DNA from: Yuukianura sp. NJ FZ-2021
Taxonomy: Eukaryota
DNA: 64,000 nucleotides
Direction of reading: 5' to 3'
NCBI GenBank assembly: GCA_046563655.1
Contig: CM102290.1
Location: forward strand, 6,448,001 to 6,512,000
Shown: one piece after another, positions 28,411 through 58,084 of the stretch
How positions within the stretch are numbered: position 1 is the stretch's first letter
Layout: every line of letters begins with the position of its first letter
Position numbers and translations under genes: made by a program
The notes under the pieces: generated by a model
Told to the model about the DNA's origin: nothing
What the model saw: the letters and a program-made list of their open reading frames with translations, nothing else
Databases searched by the model: none

Positions 28411-29622
28411 ATGGACCAAACACCGGAAGACTTGATGGAACAAGGAGAAGGTGACGCTTCGGAGGGAATTGCGGAAATTGATTTGGCTGCAGAAGACGAA
28501 CTGCTGAATTCTCCGCCTCCCCGTGATACTGCTTCTCCTGGCTCTTCATCTTCGTCTTCATCTTCTTCGTCTTCTTCGCCCCCTACGACTGTCATTGCTG
28601 CTCCGATTACTCCTCGTCGTGTGGATCCGATTCCGGATGATTGGGACATGCCCTCGCTGCTGATTCCCCCCCCGAAATCCCCGAAGAAACCGGATCGTCA
28701 GTCCCCCCAAAGCTCTGGCAGTTTCCAACCCCGTTCCCCTGAGAAGAGCCTTCAGGAGATGGTTATTCCCCCAGTCCCTCGTCCAAAGCTTGCTTCGGTC
28801 GTTGTGATTCCCCCCTCGTCCCAAAATTCGCCTATGTTTCGTCGTCCCTCTGCTCCTGCGCCGAAATCCAATCCGCAAGGCCAGAAGTCTGCTGCAGCCA
28901 AGGTCGTCCCGCTTATGGATTTGAAGTTCCCGGATGGACCCTCAAAACCTCCTCAAGCTGGTACTTCTGGATCTGGTTCCCTCTCAGTCTTGGCTCGTGA
29001 CATGTCCAAAGTCACTCTGAACCCTCAAACCCCCCAAAACCCTGGACCGAGCACTTCTTCACGATCGGCTGCACCAATTCGGATTCTCGCTCGCCCAAAT
29101 CGTCCAGCTCCGTACTCTACTCGTCCCCCATTGGCTCAAAATTCGGCTCCATCTTCATCAATTCGGCCCCTTTCTTCAAATTCCCGCCAAAATTCCAGCT
29201 CCGGTTCATTTTCTTCTTCAGCTCAAGCAGTTTCCCAAGCTCCAGCAGTTCCCCCAGCCTCAGCATCAGTTCCCCAAGCCACTTCCGGTTCCTTCACCAT
29301 CCCAATCTCTGCAGCAGCTTCCAGCTCCACGTTCCAGTCAACGAATGTTCCCCCTGGACTGATCCCCATTCACGCCTACGTTCCAGCCGGCGCAACGTCA
29401 GTCACCGTAACGTGGAATACCCCCCAGGATTCACCAAACCCTGCTCCAGTTCCCCCAGCTCTTGCACAAGGACGTTTTCCTCCAGCTCCTGCACAAGGAC
29501 GTTTCCCCCCAGCCCCGAATCGGCAACAGCGACGTGCTCGTTGGTGGGCAGAGAACTCTGCAAATTGTCCACCTCCTCCCAAGCAACATCATTCCAAGGA
29601 TCCCCCACCACCATCCCAATAA
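28411..29622 (+). CDS. E1 extra ORF3: Pro/Ser-rich, probably disordered protein of unknown function (not env-like)
   Basis: Open frame of ~400 aa after pol. The ATG at 28411 is directly preceded by a polypyrimidine tract and ttttcagG. It has an acidic N-terminus and an Arg-rich C-terminus, with no transmembrane segment or furin site from this ATG. Confidence 0.65.
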   Translation: MDQTPEDLMEQGEGDASEGIAEIDLAAEDELLNSPPPRDTASPGSSSSSSSSSSSSPPTTVIAAPITPRRVDPIPDDWDMPSLLIPPPKSPKKPDRQSPQSSGSFQPRSPEKSLQEMVIPPVPRPKLASVVVIPPSSQNSPMFRRPSAPAPKSNPQGQKSAAAKVVPLMDLKFPDGPSKPPQAGTSGSGSLSVLARDMSKVTLNPQTPQNPGPSTSSRSAAPIRILARPNRPAPYSTRPPLAQNSAPSSSIRPLSSNSRQNSSSGSFSSSAQAVSQAPAVPPASASVPQATSGSFTIPISAAASSSTFQSTNVPPGLIPIHAYVPAGATSVTVTWNTPQDSPNPAPVPPALAQGRFPPAPAQGRFPPAPNRQQRRARWWAENSANCPPPPKQHHSKDPPPPSQ

Positions 29623-29686
29623 TTCCCCGAATCGCTCCGGAGTCCCTCGGTTTATCGCCGTGGCGGCTCACAGATCGCTGGGAATA

Positions 29687-30256
29687 TGTGGGGAGGTATC
29701 CCCAAACCCCTCTATAGCCTCGTGGTTCCCTCGTCCTCCTCCGCTCCACTCAACAATAGCAGCACAACAATCCCTTCGTCCCTCTGCAGTTCCGGAACCA
29801 CCAAGACCACCAGACAGCCAATCAGATGCAACAAAAGTTGCATTAGCCATCCATCTCGTCTCGTCATCATCATCTTCTTCCTCCTCCATTTTCTCTGGAC
29901 AGTCGTCCACAACATCTCACAAGGAGAAGACCTCGTCACTCCAGTTCCCAGTAGCAGCCATCTTCTTTCTTCGTGTCTGGACCCGCTACTGCCTCTATTG
30001 ACCCGGATTTGACCTCAATTCACCTCCACTGGACTTCCTGGACAGACCAGGAATACCTGGTTGATCCGACCAGGACCGCTCGTCTCTCCTACTACTACAA
30101 ATTGGCCGTAACTGTATCTTTTGTTTGTTCAATAAATTACTAATCCAATTCTTGTAGCTCCCGTGACCTCTGCCCCTTTATTTCCGTCGTCAGACGTTCT
30201 CGGGTGACCGCGAACGGGGGCCCGTTGGGGAGTTCACCCCAAGCTTTCCCTCACCA
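29687..30256 (+). repeat. Putative 3' LTR of E1
   Basis: TG start after a short purine run (GGGAATA), AATAAA at 30131, CA end with an imperfect terminal inverted repeat. Single copy only. Confidence 0.45.
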
Positions 30257-30506
30257 CTTTTTGCACCCACTTTAGTTACTTTAATTGAAGTAAGGCGAAA
30301 AAAAAGTCAAAGGTCATGCGGGTTAGGAACAACAAGTTTTTGCTTTTGTTTCGAAATTGTTTTCTAAATTGATTACTTCTGTCACACCGAGAAGAAAGCG
30401 TTCACTTCCACTTCACACAATTAGTTACAAAGCAATTTCCAGAAGTTTTTCAATCAGGATCAGGAATCCATGATCTCGTTGTGACCTTGTCACCTGTTTT
30501 TATCTA

Positions 30507-30620
30507 GCGGTGTGCTGTACACAATGTTTAGTCATGATTGATGAATTTGATAATTTCAATGTTACCGCGCGCATCATTGAAGACAATGTTCATCTGGAAT
30601 TTGCCAAAATGCCAAAAATT
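30507..30620 (+). other. Exon-like fragment resembling the C-terminal half of a ZAD (zf-AD) domain
   Basis: After the acceptor tatctag, the frame reads CCTQCLVMIDEFDNFNVTARIIE, matching the CxxC-x3-I-x2-F-x2-F helix pattern of ZAD. Confidence 0.35.
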
Positions 30621-33600: not shown

Positions 33601-33674
33601 CGTTGTGGCGACGATGTCCAGAATTTTTTTTTGTTCAGTTTAGAGTATGAGTTTCTGGGTGGTCGCGGCTTCTC

Positions 33675-33708
33675 CCCGTGTGCACGTGCACGGGACTCCT
33701 CAGTCTAG
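33675..33708 (+). mobile_element. Helitron-like 3' terminus (hairpin plus CTAG|T)
   Basis: CCCGTG-tgcacgtg-CACGGG hairpin at 33675-33694, a 10-nt spacer, then CTAG at 33705-33708 followed by T. Confidence 0.5.
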
Positions 33709-33779
33709 TTTTAGCTCTTCTAGAGTACAGTCGCATATTTAGGAGCTCTCAGTTTCTTAGTTGTAAGTTTTTCCCTCAA

Positions 33780-34540
33780 CTTGGATTCCAACTTTTACTT
33801 TTTAATTTTTACTTTTTAATTTTTACTTTTCATCTTTCATCTTTTAACTTTTATCTTTTGATGGAAGTCGAAGGTGAAGTTGTAGTTGAGGTTGGGAGTT
33901 GGGGTTGAAGTTGAGGTTAGGTTAGGGTTAAGGTTAGGTTAGCTCTGTAATTTTCATCTTTTATCTTTCATCAGTTATTTTTCATCTTTCATTTTTTATC
34001 TTTCATTTTTCATTTTTTGTCAGTTATTTTTTACTTTTTACTTTTTACTTTTTAACTTTTAACTTTTTACTTTTAATTTTTAATTTTTTGTAAAAGATTA
34101 TTGGTTGTAAGTTCTAAGTTAATTCTTCTAGGTTAGTTTTGTCGGTTATTTAGATTCATTGTTGGGCAGTTACCTTTTTGTTAGTTATTTTTGGTCAGTT
34201 TAATTTAGTCAGGTTATTTTTATATTTGGTCAGTTTCTCAGTTATATACCCCTGTCAGCTTAGTTCGTAGGAAGAGTCTTCAGTAAACAGTCGTCGAGTA
34301 AAGACGTTCAGAAAAGTTGCTCCGCTATTGTCCTCAGTTTCTGCAAAGTTTGGTCATTCCAGTTTTTAATTTTTGCAAGCGGATTCAACTTTTAATTTTT
34401 ACTTTTTACTTTTTAATTTTTACTTTTTAACTTTTAACTTTTTGAGTTGAAGTTAATCTGAGTCAGTCCTGAGAGTTGAGTTAATTTTTAACTTTTAATT
34501 TTAACTTTCATCTTTTATCTTTTATCTTTTAACTTTGACT
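33780..34540. repeat. AT-rich low-complexity insertion (ttttta/ttttac/ttttaac runs, short GGTTA stretch) inside the USP gene
   Basis: Degenerate 6-7 bp T-rich units are directly visible, and the tract separates USP coding segments. Confidence 0.7.
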
Positions 34541-37089
34541 TTCGTCAATCATTGTGGCACGAGATTCACTGTTCGAGATTCAATTGGGATACCGTTCATT
34601 GGTAGTATCTGGCTGGCATTACAACCCAACGGATACATATTACCAACGTCTTCTTCCTCCATTGGCTGTGACGATTCAACACTTGGCGTTTCTCAGAATC
34701 GAATATTGTGCTCTTTTAATTCTGGAGTTATCAAAATTACAGTCGTCACTTTTCCGAGTGCTGAGTATCTGTATAAAGCCAAATGAAAAATATGAAAAAA
34801 AAAACTTGAGAACTTAACCTCTTGACCAATTAAAAGAAGAAAAAAGTACGCACCGTCGGAGCGTCACAATCAAGATCTGCGGAACACTTGTGACAGAAAC
34901 AGTAGTCTTTGCGTCAAGTCTAAAGGCTTTACAATTGGGACAATTCCACTCGGTGGCATGCTCTAAGAATAGGTTATCGATGGACGACTGGACACTTCCG
35001 GTAGGCTCAACTTGTAACGTGTATGCGACATCGCCGTAGGATCTTTCAAAACCGCATTTGCAGCACTTCCTAGTCGTTTTTTGTTTTTGTTCATGCATAG
35101 TTGTCAGATTCGTCTCCTCTTCATTCTTGAAAAAAAACATAAATTACGTCATGCTGCTGCCCCCATCCATAATTATTGCCGTTCATCACAAACGAACCAG
35201 TCTGCCAAACACCGCCCACTCTTGCAATTCCTGGTTAATCAACTGGCGCAAATGGAGAAGTTGCTCTTCGGCGTCATGCTGACCATTTTTAAATTGAGGC
35301 AGTTGTTCCACCAGTACTCTGTAAATATTTCTCTCTCAGTCAAATCGATAGCTATCAAAGAACAATTTTACGTACATGGAGAGTAGCCACGGACACTTGC
35401 TGTGAGCTCGGGTAGCGAAGTTGTTGTAGAACCTGCTGGATTCCGGCCGTTATAGGCTTGAACGTCGAATCAACTGATATCTCCTGGAATGCGGAAAGCA
35501 GCAAATCCGAGCTGGCCCAACATTGTAGCAACGATGACAAATAGCACGTACTCCCCAAGTTAGGTATGCCAGGCGGTATCGATTCAACTGATGGTGCACT
35601 GCTTGAGGTGCTGCTAGATTTTGAATGTTCTGGAGCTAAGGATCTTCTGGCCTTTTTAGGAAGTAATCAAATTGGCGTCTGCAGTTTTCTGCTCTGAGTT
35701 CCATCAGCAGCTCCTGCAGAAAAAAAAAGTTAGCGTATAAAACGATGTGGCGGGTTACCTGAATTGGATTCACTGCTTGCGTCTGGACTACGTGTATCAA
35801 TCTTTTCAAAGCATTTGGTGCAAACCTAGTGAATTAAAACGCAAAGGAAACATTAGATACACGTTTCCATTACTCCAGTTAGATAAGTCATACCAAGTCC
35901 TTTTCTCTGCGTTTCGAGTTGTCTACATTTGGAAACTTTTGTGTCAAATATTGTGAATAAACCTTCCATCTCCGTGGCCCGCGCACGGTGCAAATCTGAC
36001 CATAGTCAAATTGCTTACGGCAGATTGCACAGACCAAAGACAGTTGAATGGACATTTTAAGTCAACAACAAATTTTTCAAATTCTACTTTAACTCACGCC
36101 TAAAATTTTGACCTTAAATTTAGGAAAACGCCGGAAGTCACCTAACCGCCTATAAACAAAAATCACTCGTTCCTCTGAACAAACTGAACTAATAAAACCA
36201 GACAAAAGAAATAAACAATCAACAATTAAGAAAAAAAAAACTAACACCTTGGGAACTATTTTTTTTGTATAGTTTTCGTTCAGTCTACCTTCAAATTATA
36301 ATAATTTAACCTTTAATGATTATTAACCATTATTTTTGAAATTTTGCCATCATGACATCTGACCTATGACATGGACATACATGGCCGTACTATTCCCCAC
36401 AAGGACCAGTTGAAATCAACACTCCCCTGCTACGTCCATGGTCTATCCACCGCTGTACGGAAATCGATGTCGTCATGTCCATAGAGGTCAGAGGTCAACT
36501 TACACCAACTTTTGTGACAGGATGAGCCTATAAGTTCATTTAGTTTTTGGTGTTGCAGGCATTCAGATCGAGGCTGCCGTTCAAGGGCTGGGGTAGTTTG
36601 AGAACAGCGACAAAAGCTCTCGTGGTCTCTTCACTAAAAGAGCTCATTGTTATGGGTAAGGTCAAATGTTAGGATCAACAATTTACAAAACCAAAATTTG
36701 GAAAAAAAATTTTTTTAAAGTTACTTACTTTTTTTTTGAAAATTTTCTAGGGCTAGGGAGAAGTTGGGATTGAGTGGGCCTGAAAGTTGCAAATGAGACA
36801 CAAGTCGACGGCACTGAATGTAAGTAGACACAGGTTCTTATATTACCAAAAAATCAAAATTTCGACTTTTTGAAAGATTTTCCGAAATTTTCCAAAAAGT
36901 TTCTACAAATTTTCCTCCATTACATTGGTTAACACGAATCCAAGGCTTAAAAGCAACTAATTACTTTTAAACTTTTTTTCACCTTTTCAAAAAAAACTAC
37001 TGACGGGAAATTTGTTCAAATTTTGAAGAACTTGACAAAAAATTTTTTGAAAAGATTTCACCTGTGTTCTTTTTTTCAAGTTTGACAGA

Positions 37090-37410
37090 CTTCCGACCAC
37101 TTTCGGACAACACTGTCTTCCCATTACTTAGGCCAGGAGAGCGCTGGTGTCCTACAGGAGTCGATGTCATTCGAGCAGGTAATTGACAATTAACTAAAAC
37201 TTAATTAAGCAGGCTGCACACTATGTGACGTGCTTTCGTGACCTCCTATTGGTTGGATTCTTTGTTTGTGTAAGTGAACACAGGGGTGACCACAGTCAAG
37301 TTTCTTGTCACAGGCAAGGGAACAGCGAAAACAGTCTCCATAGTGACATGTGCGTGACTGGATCTGGGCGTGGTCACATTTCGTCTTCAGCGTACATCTA
37401 CAATTCACAA
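37090..37410 (-). pseudogene. Fragment with NF-X1-type Cys/His zinc-finger repeats (NFX1/NFXL1/ZNFX1-like)
   Basis: CHYGDCFRCSLACDKKLDCGHPC matches the NF-X1 repeat pattern CHxGxCxxC...CxKxLxCGHxC. Confidence 0.5.
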
Positions 37411-37534: not shown

Positions 37535-38007
37535 TGTTACGGTGCGTTATTCCTCGGACGAATAACCGCACCAGAAAACGCTCCGAGTCTTCCTCCAGAA
37601 CTCCAGAAGACTCCAAATAGAAATGACTTGACCTCTTGACCTCGGTTTGACCTCGCTTGGCCTTAATGTCAAATCTTTATTGAAACTTGTAAAGAAACAT
37701 TTACAAGAGAGAACTTTGCTCACTTAGAGCTAAACATTGAATGAATTCACAAGATTCCTGACTGAGTCCAAATAATCTTTTCCAGTTAACTTGGGGTTTG
37801 GATTGGATTTGCAAAATCCACCAAAACCACCAAGTGAAACATAACTGTACCTTTGTTAATTCAATTAACCTACATTCCTACGACTAGGGGAGAAACAACA
37901 AGTAAACACGTAAACAACTTGTCCTTGAGGGGTCAAAATACTTCTCTGTACATTTCTAAACTTTGCAAAATGTAACTAAAACTTGTACCAAAAATCTCTA
38001 CATAACA
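37535..38007 (-). repeat. E2 3' LTR (473 bp)
   Basis: Direct repeat of 43762-44235, with TGTTA...TAACA termini. Confidence 0.97.
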
Positions 38008-38045: not shown

Positions 38046-38681
38046 CTAATTGTTGTTGTTGTTGTGGACGGCAGCAACGACGTTCACCCGGGGATTGGGG
38101 ATGTAGTGGGGATTCGGTGGGGCTCCAGGAGGTGGAAGAAGACGAGGTGGTCGCTGCACCAAACAATCTGCTGCTAAATGGCCTTGCGCCCGACAAGTGT
38201 AGCAAATCCGACGTCGTTCAGCTTGTCGGTTCCTTTGTTGACCTCGACCTTGGTTCCCGCGTCCTCTTGCATTCCCACGTCGAGCGAGTCCGCCTCCTCT
38301 CTCCCGCACTATGATGACGAGTTCTCGCCCATTCCGAAATTCACGCCATCGCGGCATCCCACGCACTGGTGGCGGCCGAACTCGCATCAATGCCACTTGG
38401 CGCTGACCTCCAGCGTGACCTCGTCGATTTCTGACGGCTGGAGCAGGTACTGCTACTACTGGAGCTGCTACTGCTACTACTGGAGCTGCTACTGCTACTA
38501 CTGGAGCTGGTACTGCTACTACTGGAGCTGCTACTGCTACTACTGCAGGCACTACTGGAGGCACATTGTCAACATTTCCTTCGTCCTCCTCATCCGTCAA
38601 CAGAATTTCAGGAATTCCTTCCGCAGGCTGGTCAACGGCCATCGGCTCATCCTCTCCGAGCAATTCCCTCTCTCGATCCAT
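38046..38681 (-). CDS. E2 extra ORF3: acidic N-terminus, (VAVAAPV)n repeat, Arg/Gly-rich region and CCHC zinc knuckle
   Basis: ATG at 38681 follows the acceptor-like tttcagG. 21-bp tandem repeats at ~38440-38545. Knuckle CYTCRAQGHLAADC. Stop lies ~40 bp before the 3' LTR. Confidence 0.7.
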   Translation of the reverse strand: MDRERELLGEDEPMAVDQPAEGIPEILLTDEEDEGNVDNVPPVVPAVVAVAAPVVAVPAPVVAVAAPVVAVAAPVVAVPAPAVRNRRGHAGGQRQVALMRVRPPPVRGMPRWREFRNGRELVIIVRERGGGLARRGNARGRGNQGRGQQRNRQAERRRICYTCRAQGHLAADCLVQRPPRLLPPPGAPPNPHYIPNPRVNVVAAVHNNNNN

Positions 38682-38918
38682 GTTCCCTGAAACATTCCAC
38701 AAAGTTAGCAAAATGGCAAACACAAAGTTAAATGAAACAATGATCTTAGACACAAAGTCTAAACAAACAACCTTTGAAAATTCTTTTCAAAACTCAAAAA
38801 TGAAAACTAATTTTTCAGAAACACTAAGTTTTAATAAAAATTTCCACTAAGGAAGTTTCTAATTATTAAAAATTCACTAAGAATTTAGCAAAGTCAGCCA
38901 ACTTACCGACCGTTGGAC

Positions 38919-41900
38919 TCACGCAGTATCCGAACAGTAACGTTTCGGTTTCCTAATCGTCCTTGCTGACCTTCTCAGTTGTACTGGAGATTTCTTGGCT
39001 TCCTTCTTCTTGTCCTTCTTGACCACTACTGACGGAGCTGGCTGCTGGACATGGACCATTTTACCAATGTCCCCTTCGTCAGTGGCAGAATCTGAGTCAA
39101 CGTGGACACTAAGTCTAACGGGACTTTTCATTGATTCTGAGGAATTAACATTCCTCTTCCTTGCAGACTGAGTCTGATTCGGAATTTCTAATTCCGATAG
39201 CGACGAACTAGATGAACTAATCTTTCTAGTGCGCTTCTTTTTCTTAATCTTTGAAGAAACAAATTCTTCATCAGAACTCGAATTGAATTCACTACGAAAG
39301 TGAAACAAATCCCTAACATGCACAATAATCGGCTTCCTACTACTACCAATCAATTTGATTTGGTAATTAACTGCCGATGTTTTCTTAGTCACCACATAGG
39401 GACCTTTGGTTTGTGCAAGTAAACATTGGGACAAGCCTTTCTTACGTACTGGCACTGAGCGCAGTACCTTATCGCCAATGTTAAAACCAACATTTTCCTT
39501 ATTCCTGTCAAAACGAACTTTTGACTTTTCATGAACTCTCCTAGAGTTCAAGGCAGCGCTCTGACTTGGCATTAAGCATACGACCCTGAGGATGGAAAGG
39601 AGACGTGAACTTGACCTTGAACTTCAGCTCCTCTTTTGCCTGTTTCACTAAGTCGGCAATGAACTGACGACCTTGGTCACAAACAAATTCTTTAGGCAAC
39701 GAATGCCTAAGAATTACCTTATCTTTTATATTAGCTACAACGCACTCAGCGGTAGCGTGTGTGACTGCTACGGACTCAACGTAGCGGGAGAAGTGATCAA
39801 TAAATATTAGCGCATATTTATTCTCCCTGTCCTTGGACTTCACAAATGGGCCAATGAAGTCAATGCCCACTCTCTCGAAAGGGGTCGTGACCTCGTCAAA
39901 GTCTTGCATAAGACCTTGCTCACGCCCTCTGCGCACTCTATGTATCTGACAGACTTTGCATCCTAGAACAAATCTACGCACGTCACGATACATTCCCTTC
40001 CAGAAAAAGCGGGATTTCACACAGCTCCACGTTCTCGTCACGCCAAAATGTCCACTTAGGTCACCTGCGTGTACCGTCTCGAGAACTCGCTTTCTCAATT
40101 CTTTAGGCACTACTAGCCTCCAAGAGCGTCCTTCAGGCTCTAAATTAGCGGAATACAAAATTCCGTCTTTTAATGTGTAATCCTCCATATGACTTATGGA
40201 CGGATTTTTCTTACCCGATCCAGAGGCGCACTCAGCTTGCTCAATGGATTCAATGACCTTCCTTATCCATGGGTCTTGACTTTGACTCTCTTTCCAGTCC
40301 ACCCCGTCTAGCACTAAGCATTCTGAGGAATCCATTGCCTCTGGTGGATCTACTGGAAACCTTGACAAGGGGTCAACGTCATTAGCGACCTTTCCAGCCC
40401 TATGGACGATGGTCATGTCCTGTGCCTGTAACACAAAGGACCATCTCGCAAGACGACCATTGGGGTCCTTCACAGAGAAGAGCCACTTCAACGCACTATG
40501 GTCTGTCACTACGGTAAAATGAGTACCGTACACATAGGGTCTGAACTTCTGTACAGCGTACACGACAGCCAAGCATTCCAACTCGCTAGAGGTGTACCTC
40601 TTTTCAATGTCCGTCATTGCTCTGCTGGCATAGGCAATGACCCGTGGTTGACCTTCCTGGATTTGCACTAAGCTTGCTCCAAGGCCAAAGCCACTTCCAT
40701 CACAATGGATCTCAAATGGAATACCCTCCATAGGAAATGCCAATATTGGACTAGTCACTAAGGCTAGTTTTAACTTTTCGAAGGCTTCATTTTGCTCAGC
40801 TCCCCACACAAAGTCCTGATCTTTTCTTAACAGAAAATTCAGTGGAGCAGCAATTTTTCCAAAACCTTTTATGAATCTCCGGTAGTACCCACACATGTTC
40901 ACAAAAGAACGAATGTGTGTTGGAGTTTTAGGTACAGGAAACTTAGTCACCGCAGACACTTTATCCTGATCTACCTCGACTCCCTCACTGGAAATGACAT
41001 GTCCAAGATACAAAATCTTTGCCAATCCAAATTTACACTTAGAAATTTTCAACGTTAAGTTAGCGTCACGAAAACGACTTAACACTGTTCTGAGGCGCAA
41101 CTGATGTTCCTCAAACGTCTTTCCCCACACAATTACGTCATCCAAATACACTAAGGTGCTCTCCCACTTAAGGTTCGACAGCACAACGTCCATTAGGTAT
41201 TGGAAACTAGAAGGACTGTTACAGAGTCCCATGGGCAGACGTCTAAATTGGTACAGACCATCCGGCGTCACAAAGGCCGTTTTCTCTTGGTCTTTTTCAT
41301 CCACTTCGATTTGGTAAAACCCAGATACCAAATCGAGTACAGTGAAGTACTTAGCGCCACCAAGGCGGTCTAGAGCGTCTTCCATTCTCGGTAACGGATA
41401 CGCATTCTTCTTCGTAATTGCGTTGATCTTCCGGAAGTCAATGCACAACCTTGATGAGCCATCCTTCTTTGGGACTAGCACAACAGGCGCGGCCCATGGG
41501 GAAATTGACTCTTCCACAATTCCCGCATCGCACAAAGCTTGGACCTTTTCCTTGATCTTCCTGCGCTCAACAAATGATGCGCGGTATGGGTGAGATCTAA
41601 TTGGAGGATGATCTCCCGTCTCTATCTTATGACGAAACAAATTCGTCTTCCCCACTTTTGATTCGTCAGTCACAAAGACATCAGAAAATTCTTTCACTAA
41701 TTTGAGGACTTCCGTCTTCTCACTTAGAGTAAGATCCTCCCCCAAATTAATTTTAAAGTCATCCTGACTTTGCTTAGGCTGGACCGTTCCCATAGTACCA
41801 TCATGATCACTTAGAAGCATGACGCTGGCTCCCTTAGCACAAGGCGAACCAAATGCAATTGTACTATTTCTGGGCAGTCTCACCTTCCCCTTATTCAGAT

Positions 41901-42813
41901 TAGTAATCCAAATATCCGTCTTTCCATCTCTAATCACAGCGTACACATAGGGCTGGATTACGTTATGTTCAAACTGTAAGCTTCTGTTCGGTGACAGGAT
42001 CACTGAACCAGAAACTATGTCAGGGCAATGAACTGTTACCCTGTGTGCTTCCCTCGGTGGAAGTACAACAGTTTGCAACAAACAAAAGTTCCACATAGGA
42101 CTAGGCTCCTCCTCTTCTTGTGACACATAGTCTTGAGGGTTACCTACAGTCTTGTCACTTAGACTTGACCTTGAACTTTGCTTCGGACTGTGTGACCTGA
42201 ATGTCCAATCCGTTCCAAGCAAAATTCTGTCTCGAAAACCTGGCATAACATGGAAACCCCACAAAGTAAGTTTACCATCGTATGTCACCATTAACTCCAC
42301 AAAGTTAGTTAATGTTGTTTGTCCCAAGGCCGTTGTCACTAAGAGCGGCGGGACTGTGTACTCCTTGTGTACAGCCTCCTTCACCTCCAGCAGAAACTCT
42401 GGACTAACAACACTAATGTTAGACCCCTCATCCACCCTCACAGAATAGGCTTTGCTACAGATAACAAATTCTGTAGTAATCCGGGGCCCTATTCGTTTAT
42501 GGCGGAAGGTTGCTGGCAGTGAATGACCTTCAACACAAGTCATCTCATTAACATCCACAGAGGATGTTGACTTCACCTTGGCTTGACCTACAAGCTTAGA
42601 GGTTGATACCAGGCACGAGGCTGGTAATGACCTCCCTTGACTTTGCTTAGAACACGTAGTTCTAATTAACTTAATTTGCTTATCTTTCTTCTCCACTGCA
42701 CTGTCAAGCACAAAGCAAGACACAGGAGAAGAACTTACTGCACTATTTTGCGTAAGAAACTTATTCTTACCAACTGCGGAGTTTTTCAGGTGACCCCGTT
42801 TCACCTTTCTCAA
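38919..42813 (-). pseudogene. pol: E2 pol (protease, RT, RNase H, integrase with an internal deletion)
   Basis: VDEGS protease-like motif; RLCIDFRKIN, LPMGLCNSP and YLDD; CDGSG and TDHSAL; HHCC, DFIGP and CDQG. After PFHPQ the sequence jumps, with a frameshift, to the GPY-containing C-terminus, so the catalytic Glu region is missing. Confidence 0.92.
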
Positions 42814-43649
42814 TCGTTTTTTGACTTAACGATTTCCTCTGCCGTCTCCGCGGCAACACCATAGACAGAAGACGACGGCTTCGGCTTCCTGTCTGGACAA
42901 TCCCTTATGAAATGATCATCCTTACGACAACCATAACACAACTTTTTAGCCGGCTTCTTAGCCGCGTCACTCGAATCACTAAGGGTCGATGACCTTGAGG
43001 AACTCGTTTCCTCCTTCGGCTTACCCACAGAGGGATTTTTGCTGACCCACTTAGGTTTGTCAGGCTTATCCGGCTTGTCCATTTTTCGCAACTTTTGCAA
43101 AAATTCAGTCGGATTTTTCGGTTCTGCGCAGTACATAATGTTGCGCAGCGTGTCGGGAAGCCCTTTGGTCAACTTTTCGACCTGCTTCTTGTCCGACATG
43201 TTCGGATCCAGCATCATAAAGATACTCAACTTTTTGCTGACGTACTCCCCAGCGGAGCTACAGTCAACAAACTTAATGGCACTGGCAGCCTTTTTCGCTT
43301 CCTTACGAACCGACTCAGGTTCGTAAAACGATTTTAATTGTTGTTTCAACAATTCCCACTTTTGATCCTTATTAGCGTCACTAAGATCGCTAATGTACTT
43401 GATCTGCGCAAATTTCCACCAATCCTGTGCTTCACCTTCCAGAAGCAAATGGAAATTTAGTAACAATAACCTGGAGTCAACTTGCTTTGTCTCCAGCGCA
43501 GCATCACATCTCACACAGAAAAGGTCTACATTCGATTTCCCATCGAATTTAGGAATTGACCTAATGACACTTTTCACATCGCTGGACATGGCAGTCGCAG
43601 CGTTAGTGCCTTTGCTTGTACTCGGATCAGTTGCCATCACAAAGTACAA
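42810..43649 (-). CDS. gag: E2 gag (capsid-like domain plus CCHC knuckle)
   Basis: IPKFDG, LLLEGEAQDWW and CYGCRKDDHFIRDC. Ends at the slippery heptamer A AAA AAC (42816-42822), overlapping the -1 pol frame. Confidence 0.9.
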   Translation of the reverse strand: MYFVMATDPSTSKGTNAATAMSSDVKSVIRSIPKFDGKSNVDLFCVRCDAALETKQVDSRLLLLNFHLLLEGEAQDWWKFAQIKYISDLSDANKDQKWELLKQQLKSFYEPESVRKEAKKAASAIKFVDCSSAGEYVSKKLSIFMMLDPNMSDKKQVEKLTKGLPDTLRNIMYCAEPKNPTEFLQKLRKMDKPDKPDKPKWVSKNPSVGKPKEETSSSRSSTLSDSSDAAKKPAKKLCYGCRKDDHFIRDCPDRKPKPSSSVYGVAAETAEEIVKSKND

Positions 43650-43761
43650 CTTCCCTTTTGATACTCAACTGAATCTTAGCACAATAACCTTACGTGAGTT
43701 CCTGAACGTATGCCCCCAATCACGAAGTTTGAAGACTAGTTCCGTTGCTCGTTCCACCAAA

Positions 43762-44235
43762 TGTTACGGTGCGTTATTCCTCGGACGAATAACCGCACCA
43801 GAAAACGCTCCGAGTCTTCCTCCAGAACTCCAGAAGACTCCAAATAGAAATGACTTGACCTCTTGACCTCGGTTTGACCTCGCTTGGCCTTAATGTCAAA
43901 TCTTTATTGAAACTTGTAAAGAAACATTTACAAGAGAGAACTTTGCTCACTTAGAGCTGAACATTGAAATGAATTCACAAGATTCCTGACTGAGTCCAAA
44001 TAATCTTTTCCAGTTAACTTGGGGTTTGGATTGGATTTGCAAAATCCACCAAAACCACCAAGTGAAACATAACTGTACCTTTGTTAATTCAATTAACCTA
44101 CATTCCTACGACTAGGGGAGAAACAACAAGTAAACACGTAAACAACTTGTCCTTGAGGGGTCAAAATACTTCTCTGTACATTTCTAAACTTTGCAAAATG
44201 TAACTAAAACTTGTACCAAAAATCTCTACATAACA
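43762..44235 (-). repeat. E2 5' LTR (474 bp)
   Basis: Direct repeat of 37535-38007, followed on the minus strand by a TGG-starting PBS. Confidence 0.97.
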
Positions 44236-50558: not shown

Positions 50559-50932
50559 TGTTGGGCGTCGCTGCGTAGGCTTAGTAGCCATAAGATTATG
50601 TCTTATTGAGATTTCGTAGAGATGCGGCGAGAGAGTCGCGGGAGTTTTGGGATGTGGCGAGGTAGAGAGAGAGATGTATTTTGTGTATAGAGTTTAGTAG
50701 TTAGTTCTGATTTGGTGTTAGAGTGAGTTGGAGATCATTTTGTCATGATCATTTTATTCAGTGTTTATATTCAGTATTTATCGATACAATAAATACATCT
50801 TCATATATTTATGTATCGACGTGTTTAGCAGTGGTGATTTTCTGGAGGTTATTTGGGTCTGTGAGCCTGTAGGCTCGGAGAGTAGTCTGGTGGTGGTGTT
50901 TCATCAGTTGTTTAGCGTCGCAGGGCGTTACA
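50559..50932 (+). repeat. E3 5' LTR (374 bp)
   Basis: Direct repeat of 58128-58503, with TG...CA ends and AATAAA at ~50788. Confidence 0.97.
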
Positions 50933-51139
50933 CATGGCGACCGTTTGCGTCCAGATCCAGTGACCTGGAAGTCACCAAAGGTCAAAAAAGATAAAAGTAA
51001 GAAATATTGTGAAAAATTTTGCATTAAAAAAGTGTACTGTGCATAAAATTAATGAATGAGAGTCGCTACCAGCGGCTTTCGCCCACTTATTCATTCTGGG
51101 AGTCACTAACAGTGGCCTCCGTTGTGTCAAAGTTCATCC

Positions 51140-52660
51140 ATGAGTGAAAAGAAAGTTCCTAGTGAACTTTCCAAGTTAAAAATCGACAAATCAGTCGCAT
51201 TCGGCGTGGAGGTAGAGGGACTATCTCCTGACGCGGAAGGACCGTTCTTGAGAAGCAAAACTTCTCCGAGTGTATCTCCAACTCCAACATCCAGTGCTAT
51301 AGTGTCAGTTCCTGCGGGTGCATCGACAATGGCAACATACAGTAAAGATGACGTGGACAGGATAGTTGCTGCTGCGGTAGCAAAAGCCATGAAAGGCGTG
51401 GAAGACAAAATAGTGTCCAGAGTGTCCACGGGAGTCGCTACTGCGGCCTCCACTGTGAGTGAAAGTGAAAGTCAGACAGAGGCGCTGATTGCTGCCTTAA
51501 AGAACGTGAAGTTTACCTCGTTGTCATCAAAGTTACCAGTTCCAAAATTCGACACAAGGAAGATGTCGGCGGCAGGATACCTTGCTGATGTAGAACGCTA
51601 CTACACAGCACAAGGACATTCAGAGCAACAGTTTTTGTACCTAGTGAAAACAGTGTTGCCAAGTGAGTCTCAGCCATGGTTTGAGCATATTTTAAATACA
51701 GTGACAACGTGGGACGAATTTAAAGATGCATTTATTGATCGTTACGACAATTGGATGGATGTGGCAGAGCGGACTAGACTCTTGCACACCCGAAGACAAC
51801 AATTACATGAACCAACTGAACATTTCATCTACGATATGGTGCGCAGTGCTAAATTAGTGTACCCACATGAAACAACAGCTGAGGCTGTTATGAGGGCGAA
51901 ACTGGCGCTATACCCTAGACTTCGTACAGCTCTAGGTACTGGCAGTTTTCCTACAGTTGAGTCATTGTTTGAAGCGTGTCGTGTTGCTCACGCTAACTTA
52001 AGTGCCGAGGATCGAATTAATCGTGAAAAATACCCAAAGCTACCACCAATTGTGAAAGTGGAATCAAAAAATTCAGAAAATGAAAAAAGTGGAAGTGATG
52101 GTGCGAGTTCCAGTGCTAATCACAAGAATAATGGAAATAACGGAAATTACTACAGAGGAAGAGGAAATTACAGTGGTGGTTACCGTGGCTCAAATTATCG
52201 TGGCAGAGGTGGCTACCATACTCAAAACCAGGAGCAAAGCCCGGTTCAGACAGCAAATGGGAGTCAGTTCACTGGCTTCCCCCCAAATCATGGTGATGTT
52301 CAAAATCAAGGTCAGAGTCAAGGTCAGAATCAGAGACCTTCTGCGGCAGACAGTTCTGTTCAAAATCAGAGTCAGTCAGTGCAGCGTGGTAGAGGTGGTT
52401 ATCGCGGAAATCGTGGTGGTAGTTCCAGTGGTCGTGGTAATGGTCGTGGGAATGGTAATTCGCAGCCAGTGAATCCAGAGGATGTCCAGAGCTACAAGTG
52501 TAGTGGTTACGGTCATCGACAGTTTCAGTGTCCTACGAACATGGGTGCGGCCTTAGGATCATTCAGTGAGGCGGCTAAAAAAGCTGTGGCTCAAAGCGAA
52601 AATGTGAACCAGGCTCAAGGGCCTTCTACTTCTACAAATATGAAAGAAAAGTTAAACTAA
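51140..52660 (+). CDS. gag: E3 gag (capsid-like domain, RGG-rich region, degenerate knuckle SYKCSGYGHRQFQC)
   Basis: PVPKFD, PWF...TTWDEFKDAFIDRY and RRQQLHEP. Stop follows the G TTA AAC heptamer at 52651, and the -1 frame is open into pol. Confidence 0.9.
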   Translation: MSEKKVPSELSKLKIDKSVAFGVEVEGLSPDAEGPFLRSKTSPSVSPTPTSSAIVSVPAGASTMATYSKDDVDRIVAAAVAKAMKGVEDKIVSRVSTGVATAASTVSESESQTEALIAALKNVKFTSLSSKLPVPKFDTRKMSAAGYLADVERYYTAQGHSEQQFLYLVKTVLPSESQPWFEHILNTVTTWDEFKDAFIDRYDNWMDVAERTRLLHTRRQQLHEPTEHFIYDMVRSAKLVYPHETTAEAVMRAKLALYPRLRTALGTGSFPTVESLFEACRVAHANLSAEDRINREKYPKLPPIVKVESKNSENEKSGSDGASSSANHKNNGNNGNYYRGRGNYSGGYRGSNYRGRGGYHTQNQEQSPVQTANGSQFTGFPPNHGDVQNQGQSQGQNQRPSAADSSVQNQSQSVQRGRGGYRGNRGGSSSGRGNGRGNGNSQPVNPEDVQSYKCSGYGHRQFQCPTNMGAALGSFSEAAKKAVAQSENVNQAQGPSTSTNMKEKLN

Positions 52661-55600
52661 AGGAGGGGAATGACGAGTCGTCCATCATTCACCCAACATT
52701 AATTCAAATCTCGGACGAAACTATACCATTTGTGAGTGTGACCGCGTACCAGTCAAAGTTCTTGGCTATTTTTGATACGGGATGTTCACAATCACTAATT
52801 GAAAGAAGTTTGTGTAAAAATTTAAATTCAGTTGTAGTGTCTTTAGAAAATAAGTCTACAACGACAATGAACAATCAGGAGCTACATTTAAGTGGTTTCA
52901 CCTTTGTGTACATAAAAATTGGAGAGAGAACGATTAGGTTTAGGTTCTTCGTGGCAGAATCTCTTCCTGTTCCGTGTGTTTTGGGTTCTGACTACATTGC
53001 TCAGAACGACATTGTGCTTCGATTAAAGTCAAAGCAGTTTTGGTTTGGTGCGAATGAGAGTCATAAATTTACTTTGGCTTTCGCCCATGGTACGACTGGT
53101 TCAGCGTACTTTGCAGTTGCTTTACCAAAAAGCAAAAACAGTGAAAGTGAAAGTGATATTCAAGAAAAAGTGCAAAAAGTGTTAAAACAGTTCCCGACTG
53201 TGGTTAGGGACGATGGGAAATTAGGAAGAACGGATTGGACTCATCATATTATTGAAGATGAAGGATACCCGCCAGCGAGGAATCCTTACAAAAAGTCACC
53301 AGCGATTCAGAAGGTGATAAATGATCAAATTGAACAGTTACTCAAGGAAGGGATAATTCGAGATTCAAGATCACCGTATGCAGCACCAGTTGTGTTAGTG
53401 CCAAAGAAAGATGGCAGCCAAAGACTCTGTGTGGATTATACTTGTTTAAATCAGCAAACGAAGACGAATGCAACTCCAATGGAAAGTGCACATTCCATTT
53501 TACATTCGATTCCTTCAAATCATTGGTATTCAGTGCTTGATTTGGACAGAGGCTACTGGCAAGTGATGTTGCATCCGGATAGTGTTGAAAAGTCAGCATT
53601 TGTGACACAGGATGGACATTATGAGTTTTTAGTGATGCCATTTGTTCTAAAAATAGTCCTAAAACGTGCCAACAGTTAATCAGAAGAGTGATTCGTGGGT
53701 TTTCTAATTTTGCGAAGGGTTATATGGATGACATCATCATTTTTAGTAAAACAGTGGATGAGCATATGGTGCATCTGTCTAAAGTGTTAACTAGGCTTAA
53801 GTTGGCAGGCCTAACCCTTAGTCGCAAAAAACTTCAGTTGTGTCAACGTGAAATTGATGTTTTAGGTCATAAGTTGTCAGGGTTTAAAAAAGTGTCCCAA
53901 AAAAGTGCAAGCGATTGTGGATTTTCCTACGCCTAAAAATGTGAAAGAAGTTCAACGATTTCATGGAATGGCTCAGTGGTACGCCAGTTTCATAGAACAT
54001 TTTGCACAAAAGGCAGAGCCTATGTACAGACTTTTAAGAAAAACTCAACCGTGGCAGTGGGGACCAGAACAACAGAAGTCATTTGAAGCAATTAAAGAAG
54101 CAATGTGCAACGATGTCATGATGTGGACTATGATCATCCAATTTTGTTAAAGTGTGATGCGTCTAAGTTAGGGTTGGGAGCAGCCTTGACGCAAGTGTTT
54201 AATGGTGTGGAGAGACCAGTTATGTTCATAAGCAAGACTCTACGAAATTCAGAAATTCGGTATCATATTTACGAGAAAGAGTTGTTTGCCATCATTTGGG
54301 CTTATCAAAAATTCAGGGAGTACATAGAAGGTCAAGAATTTACAATAATCACAGACAACAAAGCCCTGTCGTTTCTACAAAAGATGAAAGAGAGAAAACA
54401 AAAGTTACAGTTATGGGATGTGGAGATTAAGTCGTGGGGAGTGCCAATTAAACATCGAGCAGGGAAGGATAACGTGGAGTCGGACGCGCTTTCACGGGCT
54501 CCAGTTCCAGTGCAAGAAGATGATTTGGATTTTGACGACGATTCCCCAGAGTACATGTATTCGCCGATGGCCACGGCATTACTGTCATTCGACACTCCAA
54601 CATTCAAGCAGATGAAAGAAGAACAGGAGACAGATGAAGAATTGAAAAAGGTTATTCGTGCAGTGAAAAGTGGAAAAAGTGAGCAGCAGTACGTCCTGAA
54701 GAATGGGCTACTGAAAAAGAGAGTCAAAGACTTTGGCTTTCGCACCACTGTGGGAGTCTGCGGATATCCCGAAGAAGAGAGAGATGCAGAAACGGGGCCC
54801 CAAGCTTCTGACATTTCTCTAGAGAACGTTGTCCTAGCCTCTAATGGCGCAGCTCGCAGCGTATCTCAAACTCAACAAAGTGAGTTACTAGTGACAGTGG
54901 TTCCAAGGGTCTTAATCCCTAAAATTTTGCAAAATCTACACGATGTTCCAGAAGCGGCTCATCTAGGGATCAAAGCAACAAAAGTGAAAATTAAGAAGAG
55001 ATTTTTCTGGCATAATATGAACAAGGACATTAGTGAATATGTGCGTTCATGTCCAGTTTGTCAAGTAGTGAAAAGTGTTAATCATAAACCATTCGGGTTA
55101 CTTCAGGGAGCTAAGCCAGCTACCCAAGTTTTTGAAAAAATTTATGTGGACTTCTTAGGTCCGTTACCCCGCAGTTCAAATGGAAATGAATATTTGTTCG
55201 TTGTTGAAGATGACCTCTCCAAGTGGGTTGAACTTTTTCCAATTCGAAAAGCAACAGCGAATAAAGTAGTGAAAGTGCTAGTGGATGAGATATTCTGTAG
55301 ATATGGAACAGTGAAAACTATAGTGTCAGACAATGGAAGTCAGTTCATCTCTAAAACAATGGCTAAAATGACCAAAGACTGGAAAATCAATCATGTGTGC
55401 GTCAGTCCATATCACGCTCAGGCCAACTCAGTTGAAAGAGTTAATCGTGATTTAAAGCCTATGTTACAGGCCTATGTGGGTGCTAACCATAGAAGTTGGG
55501 ATATACACCTTCAAAAGTTCGCTTTAGCCCTGAGAACTACAGTGCATAGTTCAACTAAAGTGACACCTTCATTATTGAATTTAGGACGTGAGATACCATT

Positions 55601-56132
55601 ACCTATAGACAGAAGTTTACAGAGTGATCAAAGTGTAATTAATTCAGAAACAGTGGATTTAGCAAGCATTCCTAGGGAGTTAAGTGACATTGTTAGTTTT
55701 GTGCGTCAAAACATTCAAAAAGCTCATGATGCGAGTAAAAGGTACTACGACCAGCGTCACATTGAACCTACGTTTCAAGTTGGTGATTTTGTGTTAGCTA
55801 AGAGTCATGTTCAGTCTGATAAAGCCAAAGGAATTATGCAAAAATTGTCACATCGGTTCGTTGGTCCATTTCAAATTAGTGAAATTTTGACACCAGTGAC
55901 ATTCAAATTGGTTAGGTTGCCAGAAAGAACGTATTTTGGTAAGCGTCACGCGTCTGAGCTTAAGCCATATACAGTTCGCAAGTCGCAGTTCAAAGTACCG
56001 TTGGTGTCTGTCGTGTCAGAGGAATCGCCAGACCCAGACACTCTACCGGTGAGGCGAACAACAAGAAACATACAACGTGTTAACTACCGGACTTTAGCTG
56101 GTTACAGATCTTACAATTCAAGTACTAATTAG
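52651..56132 (+). pseudogene. pol: E3 pol (protease, RT, RNase H, integrase) with about three frameshifts in the RT/RH region
   Basis: FDTGCS; RLCVDY, MPF and YMDD; CDASK and TDNKAL; HHCC, DFLGP, SDNGSQF and NSVERVN; GPF motif. Confidence 0.95.
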
Positions 56133-56209
56133 ACGTTAATCATCAGTGTCTACTTTACCGTGAAGTGTCAATTGGGAGTCATAAGTGTTTGGCTTCCGTC
56201 ATTCTCAAC

Positions 56210-58084
56210 ATGCCTGGATCGATTCTGAAAGTAAGTAGTGCTAAGGAGAGGGTCCTAAGCTTTCTGCAGAAAAGGAATTTGTGTCTACGGAAGTACGGTA
56301 ATGCTAAAGAACGACCACAGGAATCTGACCCAGTTTATCTTCGTCGTGCAAGACTTCGTAATTCATGGTCAGTGTTTCCTCATAGTGTTCATCCATTTGT
56401 GGAAGATGTTGATTCTTGGAAGTTAGAGGAGTTCCTGGATACTAAACATACAGAAATCAAAGGAAAGTGGTATGAAGACCGTCGTAAGGATTTTAAGGTG
56501 ATTATAGTGGATAGTGAGCGTGCATTTCGACGTATGCTGAAGCATCTTCGTGAGTGCTCCGTCATTGCTGTGGATCTTGAGATGAGCTTCGACAAGGGAT
56601 ATATTGATAGATATATCTCACTTCTACAGTTATCGGTTCGTGGATGTGATTATCTTGTTGATACTTTCCAGTTGGTGCATCAGTGTGATCAACTTAAAGA
56701 AATTTTTCATGACAGCGAGACTTTAAAAGTTTTTCATGGAAGTGACAATGATCTACTCGCTCTACAGCTTCAATTTCAAGTTTTCATGGTTGGAATGATT
56801 GACGTTCAAGTGGTACATAAAGAGTTTTGTGGTGGTCAACCAATTGGATTTGACAAATTAGTTCATTTTTATCTCGGTTCGGAAGTGTCAGTTCCGAAAG
56901 AGTGCCAATTAAGTGACTTTCGTATTCGGCCCCTTACAAAAATGCATTCGGATATGCTAGAGTACGCTCGTAGCGATACTCATCTTCTTTTGCGAGTCTG
57001 CAGAGTGCTTCAAGTTAAGTACCCATTTGTACAGTTTAGGGATAAGTGGAAAAGTGCAGTGGACAAGTGCAATGTGATGTGTAAAAAGATGTATAAAATC
57101 AAACATCACCCTACGTCAAGTGAACTTGTTCAGCGGTTTGCTCAGGGTGGTGTCAATTCGGCTGTACTTTTGAAAATTTTTGAGTGGAGATCACAAGTAG
57201 CTCGTGCTTGTGATCGTCAACCAAGTGATGTGATTATCGACGAGTTATGTGTAAAAATAGCTACAAAGTTGCCAGTTGATTCATCAGAATTGACTAAGAT
57301 CCTTGGCAAAGTGGATCTTAGCAGTGATCATTTGTATAAGTTGTTAAAAATTACAGCTGAAAGTCAGACTGTAAATGTGGGCCCTATGGGAGTCGATTCA
57401 TCGGCCTCCGCTAGTTCAAGTGCTAATTTAGTGCCAGTAGACTACGATGACTGGGATGTACCAATGGTCATTCCTACGGTGCAGAGCCAGGTTCAAAATG
57501 ACGTTGTGCCTACTGCAAGTTCAAGTGTAAATATTAGTGACAGTGTGCCAGTGGCGGAAGACGACAAGTTATCTGTCATCTCAGATACTTCGATTTTGTC
57601 AGATGTGTCGGCTGAGCCTATGGAAGAGGACAAACCAGTGGAAGATGCAGAGGCAGATAGTGACATGACGGATGTGGAATGTGACATTGTAGAAGAGACT
57701 ATTGATGACGGAGATGCTGATGACGTATTGGAAGTCTTTGTTCCACAAGCGGATTTGGACCAGTTGGAGGAAGTACCGGAAGTTGTTGCAGTGCCTGGGA
57801 GGATAGTTGCAGAGGTAGACATTCCACAGCACAGACATGTACCAAATCCAGACCGTTGTGGGCATTGCGGTTCTTCTCGTCACTCGTGGGAGCAGTGTTT
57901 CTACCGTCGGCGTGGATTTTCTCGGGCTGAGGCCATCGCCAAGTACAAGTGGAGAAGGAAGAAAGACAATGCAAGGATCAACATTGCTCGTCGTGGGGAC
58001 TACGCTGAGCGCCAAGTTCGTCGACGGGAGAGGAGAGAGCAGAGAGACGAGGATGGAGCAGCCGCCGCCCGAGTTCGTCGCTGA
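56210..58084 (+). CDS. E3 ORF3: Rrp6/EXOSC10-like DEDDy 3'-5' exoribonuclease with HRDC domain, acidic tract, CCHC knuckle and Arg-rich tail
   Basis: ExoI IAVDLEM; LLQLS...DYLVDT; ExoII KVFHGSDND; QLSDFRIRPL; ExoIII MLEYARSDTHLLL; HRDC IFEWRSQVARACDRQPSDVI...KIATKLP; knuckle CGHCGSSRHSWEQC. Uninterrupted, intronless and inside the LTRs. Confidence 0.93.
   Translation: MPGSILKVSSAKERVLSFLQKRNLCLRKYGNAKERPQESDPVYLRRARLRNSWSVFPHSVHPFVEDVDSWKLEEFLDTKHTEIKGKWYEDRRKDFKVIIVDSERAFRRMLKHLRECSVIAVDLEMSFDKGYIDRYISLLQLSVRGCDYLVDTFQLVHQCDQLKEIFHDSETLKVFHGSDNDLLALQLQFQVFMVGMIDVQVVHKEFCGGQPIGFDKLVHFYLGSEVSVPKECQLSDFRIRPLTKMHSDMLEYARSDTHLLLRVCRVLQVKYPFVQFRDKWKSAVDKCNVMCKKMYKIKHHPTSSELVQRFAQGGVNSAVLLKIFEWRSQVARACDRQPSDVIIDELCVKIATKLPVDSSELTKILGKVDLSSDHLYKLLKITAESQTVNVGPMGVDSSASASSSANLVPVDYDDWDVPMVIPTVQSQVQNDVVPTASSSVNISDSVPVAEDDKLSVISDTSILSDVSAEPMEEDKPVEDAEADSDMTDVECDIVEETIDDGDADDVLEVFVPQADLDQLEEVPEVVAVPGRIVAEVDIPQHRHVPNPDRCGHCGSSRHSWEQCFYRRRGFSRAEAIAKYKWRRKKDNARINIARRGDYAERQVRRRERREQRDEDGAAAARVRR

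Follow-up and report, generated by a model that had tools for sequence, protein, structure and literature searches.

In a stretch of 64,000 nucleotides (nt) from Yuukianura sp. NJ FZ-2021 (assembly GCA_046563655.1, contig CM102290.1, positions 6,448,001 to 6,512,000 of the forward strand; called here the window), three Ty3/Gypsy long terminal repeat (LTR) retrotransposons, E1, E2 and E3, each appear to encode a genuine third gene after the integrase. The product of the third open reading frame (ORF3) of E3 belongs to a transposon-borne protein family derived from the nuclease Rrp6, the ORF3 proteins of E1 and E2 are orphans, and membership of all three in one family could not be shown. The probability of this reading is put at about 0.62. 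A first-pass annotation of the window had instead viewed the three proteins as versions of one disordered, motif-bearing scaffold to which E3 added a nuclease. That unifying reading is mostly unsupported, and the proposed direction, with the nuclease added in E3, is contradicted.

Position, length and charge of the third open reading frames

Pfam matches to protease (PR), reverse transcriptase (RT), RNase H and integrase (IN) occur in all three elements, in the order PR-RT-RNaseH-IN in each, and the ORF3s follow. The E1 ORF3 (28411..29622, plus strand, ATG to stop) encodes a serine- and proline-rich protein of 403 amino acids (aa), with an acidic N-terminus, a basic C-terminus and no Pfam domain. 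The E2 ORF3, on the minus strand (38046..38681, ATG at 38681 and stop at 38046), encodes 211 aa that run from an acidic N-terminus through a (PVVAV)n repeat, an arginine-rich region and a zinc knuckle to a proline-rich end. The E3 ORF3 (56210..58084, plus strand, ATG to stop) is the longest, with 624 aa that make up an Rrp6-like nuclease with a knuckle-bearing tail. The first-pass annotation had placed a sense ORF between pol and the 3' LTR of each element, and the ORFs are indeed found there, after the integrase.

When the regions were shuffled with dinucleotide composition preserved, the observed ORF length was reached in none of 500 shuffles for E1, one of 500 for E2 and none of 500 for E3. 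The case from length is weakest for E1, where the longest shuffled frame had 404 codons against 418 observed. The three proteins also agree in their net-charge profiles, all running from acidic to basic as had been claimed: the first 40 residues carry a net charge of -12 in E1 and -13 in E2, and successive parts of the E3 linker carry -5, -10 and -17, then +8 and +5.

The description of these proteins as non-env likewise holds. None of the three has an env Pfam match; the E1 protein has no hydrophobic segment (Kyte-Doolittle maximum 1.02), and the E3 maximum of 1.39 lies inside the nuclease domain. The tandem (PVVAV)n repeat of E2 (38420-38560, minus strand), which may be a recent expansion, has a Kyte-Doolittle hydropathy that averages 2.40 across 19 residues.

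The E3 protein and its family

The folded part of the E3 protein is an Rrp6-type catalytic core. Its DEDD-Y 3'-5' exonuclease domain (DNA_pol_A_exo1, PF01612; 56501..57016, plus strand) is matched by Pfam at 6.4e-26, and the HRDC domain that follows (PF00570; 57161..57307, plus strand) at 1.8e-5, with 25.1 bits against a cut-off of 23.8. Aligned with the yeast Rrp6 catalytic core (2.4e-24), the protein matches at all five DEDD-Y residues, and the solved Rrp6/EXOSC10 cores are its best sequence matches. In an AlphaFold model, residues 10-388 are folded, with a predicted local distance difference test score (pLDDT) above 85 and a helical HRDC domain, and the best fold matches of the model in the PDB are again Rrp6 cores (E 5.5e-21 to 1e-17). 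Residues 389-547, an acidic linker of about 160 aa, are predicted to be disordered (pLDDT 24-46) and contain the tryptophan-acidic motif DDWDVP (57446..57463, plus strand). The last part, residues 548-624, is modelled with moderate confidence as the retroviral-type zinc knuckle CX2CX4HX4C (C550, C553, H558 and C563; 57857..57898, plus strand) and a long helix.

Cellular Rrp6/EXOSC10 proteins share with the E3 protein an N-terminal wrap, the DEDD-Y exonuclease and the HRDC domain, at 23-30% identity. They differ from it in that most cellular matches carry the PMC2NT domain (PF08066), which binds Rrp47 and tethers the protein to the exosome; PMC2NT was not found by Pfam in the E3 protein, where the nuclease begins about 100 aa from the initiating methionine. 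The E3 tail, with its knuckle and basic helix, and the location of the gene within an LTR element are further differences.

A word-indexed protein search with the E3 protein returned only cellular Rrp6, at about 30% identity. An exhaustive search gave 3427 matches at E<=0.001, the best listed being P0128 (8.4e-70, 37% identity), and 25 proteins from the best 150 of these were read or aligned. In 22 of these 25, which range from 247 to 810 aa, the nuclease starts near the N-terminus, unlike in cellular Rrp6, although in P0136 it stands behind a fused integrase end; PMC2NT was absent by Pfam from the five relatives scanned. Identity between E3 and its relatives is 22-37% (22-32% for the members of alignment A1), and the relatives have a common layout: an N-terminal block (RPQ[ED] ... 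HP ... W), the exonuclease, the HRDC domain, an acidic linker, the knuckle and a basic tail. The four knuckle residues are invariant in 13 of 13 sequences of alignment A1. Among the best 150 matches listed, a strict knuckle after residue 300 occurs in 13 of 147 new proteins, and two more have one with variant spacing. Four members (P0140, P0141, P0145 and P0146) form a subgroup without a knuckle that ends in a basic block, Y-x-x-[KR]-R-R-x-F-N-x-R-R-N, and shares the motif [DE]-V-L-E-[VI]-x-A-P with knuckle-bearing members.

A position downstream of a Gypsy integrase is seen in E3 and in two further cases. At the metagenome locus L001, about 325 nt separate the start of the homologue P0134 from a preceding ORF for the C-terminal part of an integrase, which is 50% identical to the E3 integrase (3e-75) and has the same ending, RVNYRTLAGYRS. 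In P0136, the first 154 residues are themselves an integrase C-terminus (32% identity, 3e-22). Locus L001 also has, upstream of its truncated Gypsy integrase and on the opposite strand, an ORF of 236 aa (435-1145, minus strand) without a Pfam match, whose middle resembles a coiled coil and whose end is basic; it may be ORF1 of another retroelement. Scans of viral contigs with the E2 pol and with the family alignment gave no match.

In a maximum-likelihood tree, a branch with a Shimodaira-Hasegawa-like approximate likelihood ratio test (SH-aLRT) support of 100 sets the group of E3, P0014 and the 22 transposon-type proteins apart from 23 cellular Rrp6 proteins, and E3 stands beside P0128 in a clade of 15 with a support of 98. 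P0014, which is named as a protein of the springtail Orchesella dallaii, is placed by the tree with the transposon type. A recent capture of the host EXOSC10 by E3 was considered and rejected, the closest relatives of the E3 nuclease being of the transposon type and not cellular Rrp6. On the evidence of sequence, the E3-type family is an old, transposon-borne derivative of the Rrp6/EXOSC10 catalytic core.

Copies of E3 were compared by means of DNA contigs from sequencing runs of organism A (runs X1 and X2) and of organism B. In run X1, the depth over ORF3 was 132-168 and that over pol 141-227, with 13 over the single-copy flank; in run X2, the corresponding depths were 523-807, 825-1171 and 125. 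The near equality of the ORF3 and pol depths implies that most copies of E3 carry ORF3. The depth of E2 is about 1-4 times that of the flank. A contig of organism B that covers the nuclease and HRDC domains (56160-57438) has 155 substitutions and no gaps, and one that covers the acidic end, knuckle and basic tail (57569-58084) has 26 substitutions and no gaps; other E3 pieces from organism B are an integrase piece with 95 substitutions and no gaps, and a piece over 53428-54304 with 135 substitutions and 13 gaps. Diverged but gap-free contigs over ORF3 fit a reading frame under constraint.

The E1 and E2 proteins

The E2 protein has a CX2CX4HX4C knuckle (38163..38204, minus strand), scored by the Pfam zf-CCHC model at 19.9 bits against a cut-off of 20.8. 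There is no knuckle in the E1 protein or in the other frames of the E1 3' region. A search of the ESM Atlas with the E2 protein gave a best score of 0.77, which is below the level of a lead.

A splice-acceptor-like site stands immediately ahead of each ORF. The one in E1, a T-rich pyrimidine tract with CAG (28390..28409, plus strand), stops 1 nt short of the ATG and is one of six of its kind in 6062 nt. In E2, a branch-point-like word, CTAAC, and a TTTCAG (38687..38710, minus strand) end 5 nt before the ATG. Donor-like sequences lie in the leaders of E2 (GTAAGG, near 43692, minus strand) and E3 (GTAAGA, near 50996, plus strand). A contig of run X2 agrees with E2 as far as 38688 and once more from 38967 onwards. 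In place of the end of pol and the 278-nt spacer of E2 it carries 24 different letters, and it rejoins E2 within 2 nt of the acceptor-like AG. The contig represents a second E2-like subfamily that keeps the ORF3 start behind another pol junction. With acceptor-like sites only 1-5 nt before the ATG, a spliced ORF3 message can be postulated, and the E1 and E2 proteins are probably translated from spliced subgenomic mRNA.

Shared motifs and chance

The first-pass annotation drew its case for a common protein from short motifs: SEGIAEIDLAAEDE in E1 (28459..28500, plus strand) and AEGIPEILLTDEED in E2 (38583..38624, minus strand), which have EGI.EI in common; DDWDMP in E1 (28636..28653, plus strand) and DDWDVP in E3; and the knuckles of E2 and E3, each beside basic sequence. 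A motif scan recovered every one of these at the position given for it, the knuckles beginning at 38204 on the minus strand and at 57857. When the whole window was translated in six frames, no EGI.EI or DDWD.P appeared outside these ORFs.

Comparison with composition-matched shuffles, which that annotation had proposed as the check, divides the motifs. The N-terminal match between E1 and E2 is not significant (P 0.23, 0.10 and 0.12 for the first 40, 50 and 60 aa; n=2000), and EGI.EI is absent from 272 other proteins examined. The DDWD of E1 is improbable by chance and is the only one of the motifs of which this can be said: shuffling of E1 yields [DE][DE]W[DE] in about 0.1% of cases, and none of five gag and pol control proteins contains it, although the resulting figure of about 0.001 is generous because the pattern was chosen after E1 had been seen. 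Amongst the 21 family tails from outside the window, [DE]W[DE] occurs in five against 1.23 expected from shuffles (P 0.0025), and a broader tryptophan-acidic pattern in eight against 1.24 expected, a count that none of 2000 shuffles reached.

Comparison of the proteins along their whole length adds little. Local and semi-global alignments, judged against shuffles that kept local composition, gave P 0.69 for E1-E2, 0.014-0.043 for E1-E3 and 0.000-0.060 for E2-E3. Single BLASTP comparisons among the ORF3s gave E values of 2.6, 0.072 and 0.012, and comparison of the three 3' regions as DNA gave nothing below E 0.2. Against the 21 family tails, E2 scored z>2 in 6-8, its own gag knuckle region in one, and E1 in none. 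With the 14 knuckle residues of E2 masked, the number fell from six to zero, so the likeness of E2 to the E3-type tails is due to the knuckle alone. A hidden Markov model of the tails likewise matched only the knuckle when applied to E1 and E2; this model and the 12-aa matrices derived de novo from the 21 tails have low power (E3's own tail scores 11 bits and 5.3-5.6 bits), and the misses in E1 and E2 count as weak evidence. Pairwise motif sharing among the ORF3s, as judged from these alignments, is marginal at best, and homology among the three could not be shown.

Alternative explanations

A single ancestral ORF3, disordered and motif-bearing, with a nuclease inserted in the E3 line, would account for the common slot, the common acidic-to-basic polarity, the DDWD.P of E1 and E3, the knuckle of E2 and E3 and the marginal whole-ORF P values that link both E1 and E2 to E3. 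It is nevertheless an unlikely history. In relatives that are only 22-37% identical to E3, the nuclease, HRDC domain, linker, knuckle and tail travel together as one conserved unit in other organisms. Since the whole layout is conserved there, DDWDVP and the knuckle are inherited traits of the family, and the nuclease was not added to an E1- or E2-like protein in this host. Moreover, E2 resembles the family tails in the knuckle only and E1 resembles none of them, the EGI.EI likeness of E1 and E2 is neither significant nor repeated in the 272 other proteins, and there is no similarity at the DNA level. The opposite course, in which E1 or E2 or both are remnants of an E3-type protein that lost the nuclease but retained, in E1, the linker motif or, in E2, the knuckle, is also improbable. 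E1 does have a tryptophan-acidic motif of the family type, and the knuckle of E2, CX2CX3GHX4C, is nearer to that of the family than is the knuckle of the E2 gag (15.1 against 10.8 bits; z>2 in 8/21 against 1/21). The best matches in E1 and E2 to a family matrix, 'LEITAP', also coincide with their EGIxEI motifs, but these matches are not significant (P 0.09-0.13 in E1 and 0.53-0.67 in E2), the order of the motifs in E1 is reversed relative to the family, and no trace of the family's N-terminal or post-knuckle blocks was found in E1 or E2.

The E1 and E2 frames might not be genes at all, having stayed open through skewed, repetitive, low-complexity 3' untranslated sequence. Composition there is skewed to C or G, several further open frames of 100-207 codons occur on the two strands, shuffled E1 sequence comes close to the observed length, E2 has its tandem PVVAV repeat and the word-indexed search at near lengths gave no database relatives for either protein. 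This explanation has little probability when set against the rarity of the observed lengths in shuffles, the ATG directly after an acceptor-like site in both elements and the second E2-like copy that keeps the ORF3 start despite its other pol junction; in addition, we estimate from residue frequencies that E2 would contain a CX2CX4HX4C by chance with a probability of roughly 1e-4. The least probable reading takes the ORF3s for degenerate proteins of an env-like or membrane type. A place after a splice acceptor is the classical one for env, and the E2 repeat is hydrophobic; yet that repeat has a proline at about every fifth residue, the strongly acidic N-termini do not, by inspection, resemble a signal peptide, and the env and hydropathy scans described above stand against it.

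Several observations weigh against three genuine third genes with the affinities proposed here. Linkage to an integrase was seen for only two of the 22 transposon-type members, and the others could be host genes. The tree is a quick one, unrooted and built from full-length rows, with some long branches. Two diverged contigs of organism A over the E3 tail have six gaps each. For the E1 and E2 proteins, a word-indexed search in which 8000 candidates of near length were scored for each gave no relatives at E<=0.01. The acceptor-like site of E2 fails a filter of 78% pyrimidine, and E3 is without any strong acceptor. Lastly, pol is broken in the window copies of E1 and E3 and the integrase is broken in that of E2, so that none of the three copies looks autonomous.

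The elements and their surroundings

The window is AT-rich (about 38% G+C), and the elements are its three stretches of higher G+C. In E1, pol (24039..28361, plus strand; PR, RT, RNase H and IN by Pfam and the ORF list) is spread over four reading frames. The 5' end of the element is cut by a satellite array near 24000, and hence its LTR cannot be delimited. The satellite units at 20022-23927 are repeats of 124-300 nt, spaced at 262-807 nt, whose copies are 84-100% alike (positions 20000-64000 were scanned); the flat 38% G+C of 1-24000 suggests that the array probably fills that part of the window.

Both E2 and E3 have paired TG...CA LTRs and a target-site duplication, features that are undecidable in E1 with its 5' end missing. 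The E2 LTRs, delimited by repeat pairs on the minus strand (3' LTR 37535..38007, 5' LTR 43762..44235), are 100% identical over pairs of 271 and 207 nt and are flanked by a duplication of ATAT. Its gag and pol (38919..43664, minus strand) include a gag knuckle at 42938, and the frame is broken in the integrase, between the core and the SH3-like domain. The E3 LTRs, also delimited by repeat pairs (5' LTR 50559..50932, 3' LTR 58128..58503, plus strand), have pairs 99% and 95% identical and a TCAC duplication, and enclose gag and pol at 51110..56132 (plus strand), with pol in three frames in the window copy. The gag knuckle of E3 (52525-52566, plus strand) reads S-x2-C-x4-H-x4-C; serine replaces the first cysteine, and a CX2CX4HX4C expression therefore misses it. 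Over RT and RNase H, E1 and E2 are 41-45% identical, and either is 25-42% identical to E3; because they are closer to each other than to E3, E1 and E2 form a second Gypsy lineage.

Exons of a TTC21/IFT139-like gene lie at 58996-62098 (plus strand), with matches to the second, third and fourth ARM_TT21 domains (1e-11 to 5e-21). About 500 nt separate the end of the E3 3' LTR from the first such exon, which lies downstream, and E3 may be intronic or just upstream of the gene. On either side of E2 there are matches to the N-terminal cysteine box of the ubiquitin C-terminal hydrolase (UCH) domain (35358-35666 and 45197-45913, both minus strand), which may be paralogous exons or a duplication. These gene remains mark the host as a eukaryote, in all likelihood a ciliated animal.

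Relation to known systems and possible roles

LTR elements of plants and rotifers are known to carry non-env ORF3s (PMC5408684, PMC5718144, PMC6338049, each in the text available), and the rotifer examples in the first of these already fill an accessory slot of this kind. The positional slot proposed by the first-pass annotation is thus present in all three elements, but it cannot be called undescribed. The nearest precedent is an ORF3 with a DEDDy exonuclease, described for the Juno and Vesta LTR elements of bdelloid rotifers (Rodriguez et al. 2017, PMC5408684). Like the E3 gene, it is non-env, lies downstream of pol and specifies a 3'-5' exonuclease of the RNase D/Rrp6 type; according to the available portion of that article, some copies have a Cys-His-Cys motif and ORF3 is said to be expressed from spliced messages. 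The same portion reports a change of DEDD to DEED, whereas DEDD-Y is intact in E3 and in most of its relatives. HRDC, a domain present in E3, is a word absent from that text; nor does the text describe a tryptophan-acidic linker, an invariant CX2CX4HX4C or a basic tail, the two systems being compared here by description only. In a search of full-text literature for exonuclease ORF3s, only reports derived from rotifers were found, and the combination of an Rrp6 core, HRDC domain, tryptophan-acidic linker, invariant knuckle and basic tail was not found described in full-text literature outside subscription journals and Repbase.

The extra ORFs of plant Ty3/gypsy elements and the env of insect errantiviruses have the same position between pol and the 3' LTR, with a spliced subgenomic message as the usual model (PMC5408684 and PMC5718144, in the text available). 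They differ from the ORF3s of E1, E2 and E3, which have no transmembrane or fusion-protein features.

As to what the proteins may do, the description of them as disordered RNA-binding proteins stands in part: they are largely disordered, and in two of them a knuckle lies beside basic sequence, features from which we infer RNA binding. The basic or knuckle-bearing end may bind the RNA of the element, whilst the acidic end may present short motifs to host proteins. The ORF3s would be translated from spliced, subgenomic RNA, the usual route for ORF3s of LTR elements according to PMC5408684. The E3-type protein, with PMC2NT missing, may act outside the exosome as a 3'-5' exoribonuclease that trims RNA 3' ends, and its substrates could be the ends of the element RNA or host small RNAs.

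Two further systems offer analogies. In Egalitarian, a DEDDy fold with basic surfaces is an adaptor that links RNA, including a retrotransposon RNA signal, to dynein (bioRxiv 10.1101/2025.08.03.668247, in the part available). The E3 protein resembles it in joining a DEDDy fold to positively charged additions, and Egalitarian chains are among its fold matches (E about 2e-9), but E3 is much closer to Rrp6 and the analogy is a functional one. In the other, a tryptophan flanked by aspartate or glutamate in a disordered peptide binds kinesin light chain at its tetratricopeptide repeats and activates kinesin-1, as described in the available text of PMC6214655. DDWDMP of E1 and DDWDVP of E3 fit this definition, and the E3 site has a pLDDT below 50; the likeness is one of sequence only. 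By these analogies, unrelated ORF3s could have converged on an RNA-motor adaptor, in which the knuckle or basic end (in E3 also the nuclease fold) would hold RNA and the tryptophan-acidic motif would recruit kinesin-1. Such convergence is a long shot. If it were true, the ribonucleoprotein would be carried along microtubules, for example to germ plasm or oocyte; the nuclease might also act on host small RNAs, or on the 3' ends of the element RNA, by trimming them.

Accessory genes separate the 'complex' retroviruses from simple retrotransposons, and to our knowledge few such genes are known in Metaviridae apart from env. The comparison made here also carries a caution, since short motifs common to acidic, low-complexity proteins mostly fail composition-matched tests. 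Next to the DEDDy ORF3s first described in rotifers, the E3-type gene would be a second type of ORF3 with a nuclease, apparently a widespread one, in Gypsy elements outside that group. The same short tryptophan-acidic motif is also present in an unrelated orphan ORF3 of this genome, that of E1. Should motif and knuckle be functional, the proteins would offer a way to test how LTR elements exploit or escape host RNA decay, small-RNA silencing or intracellular transport.

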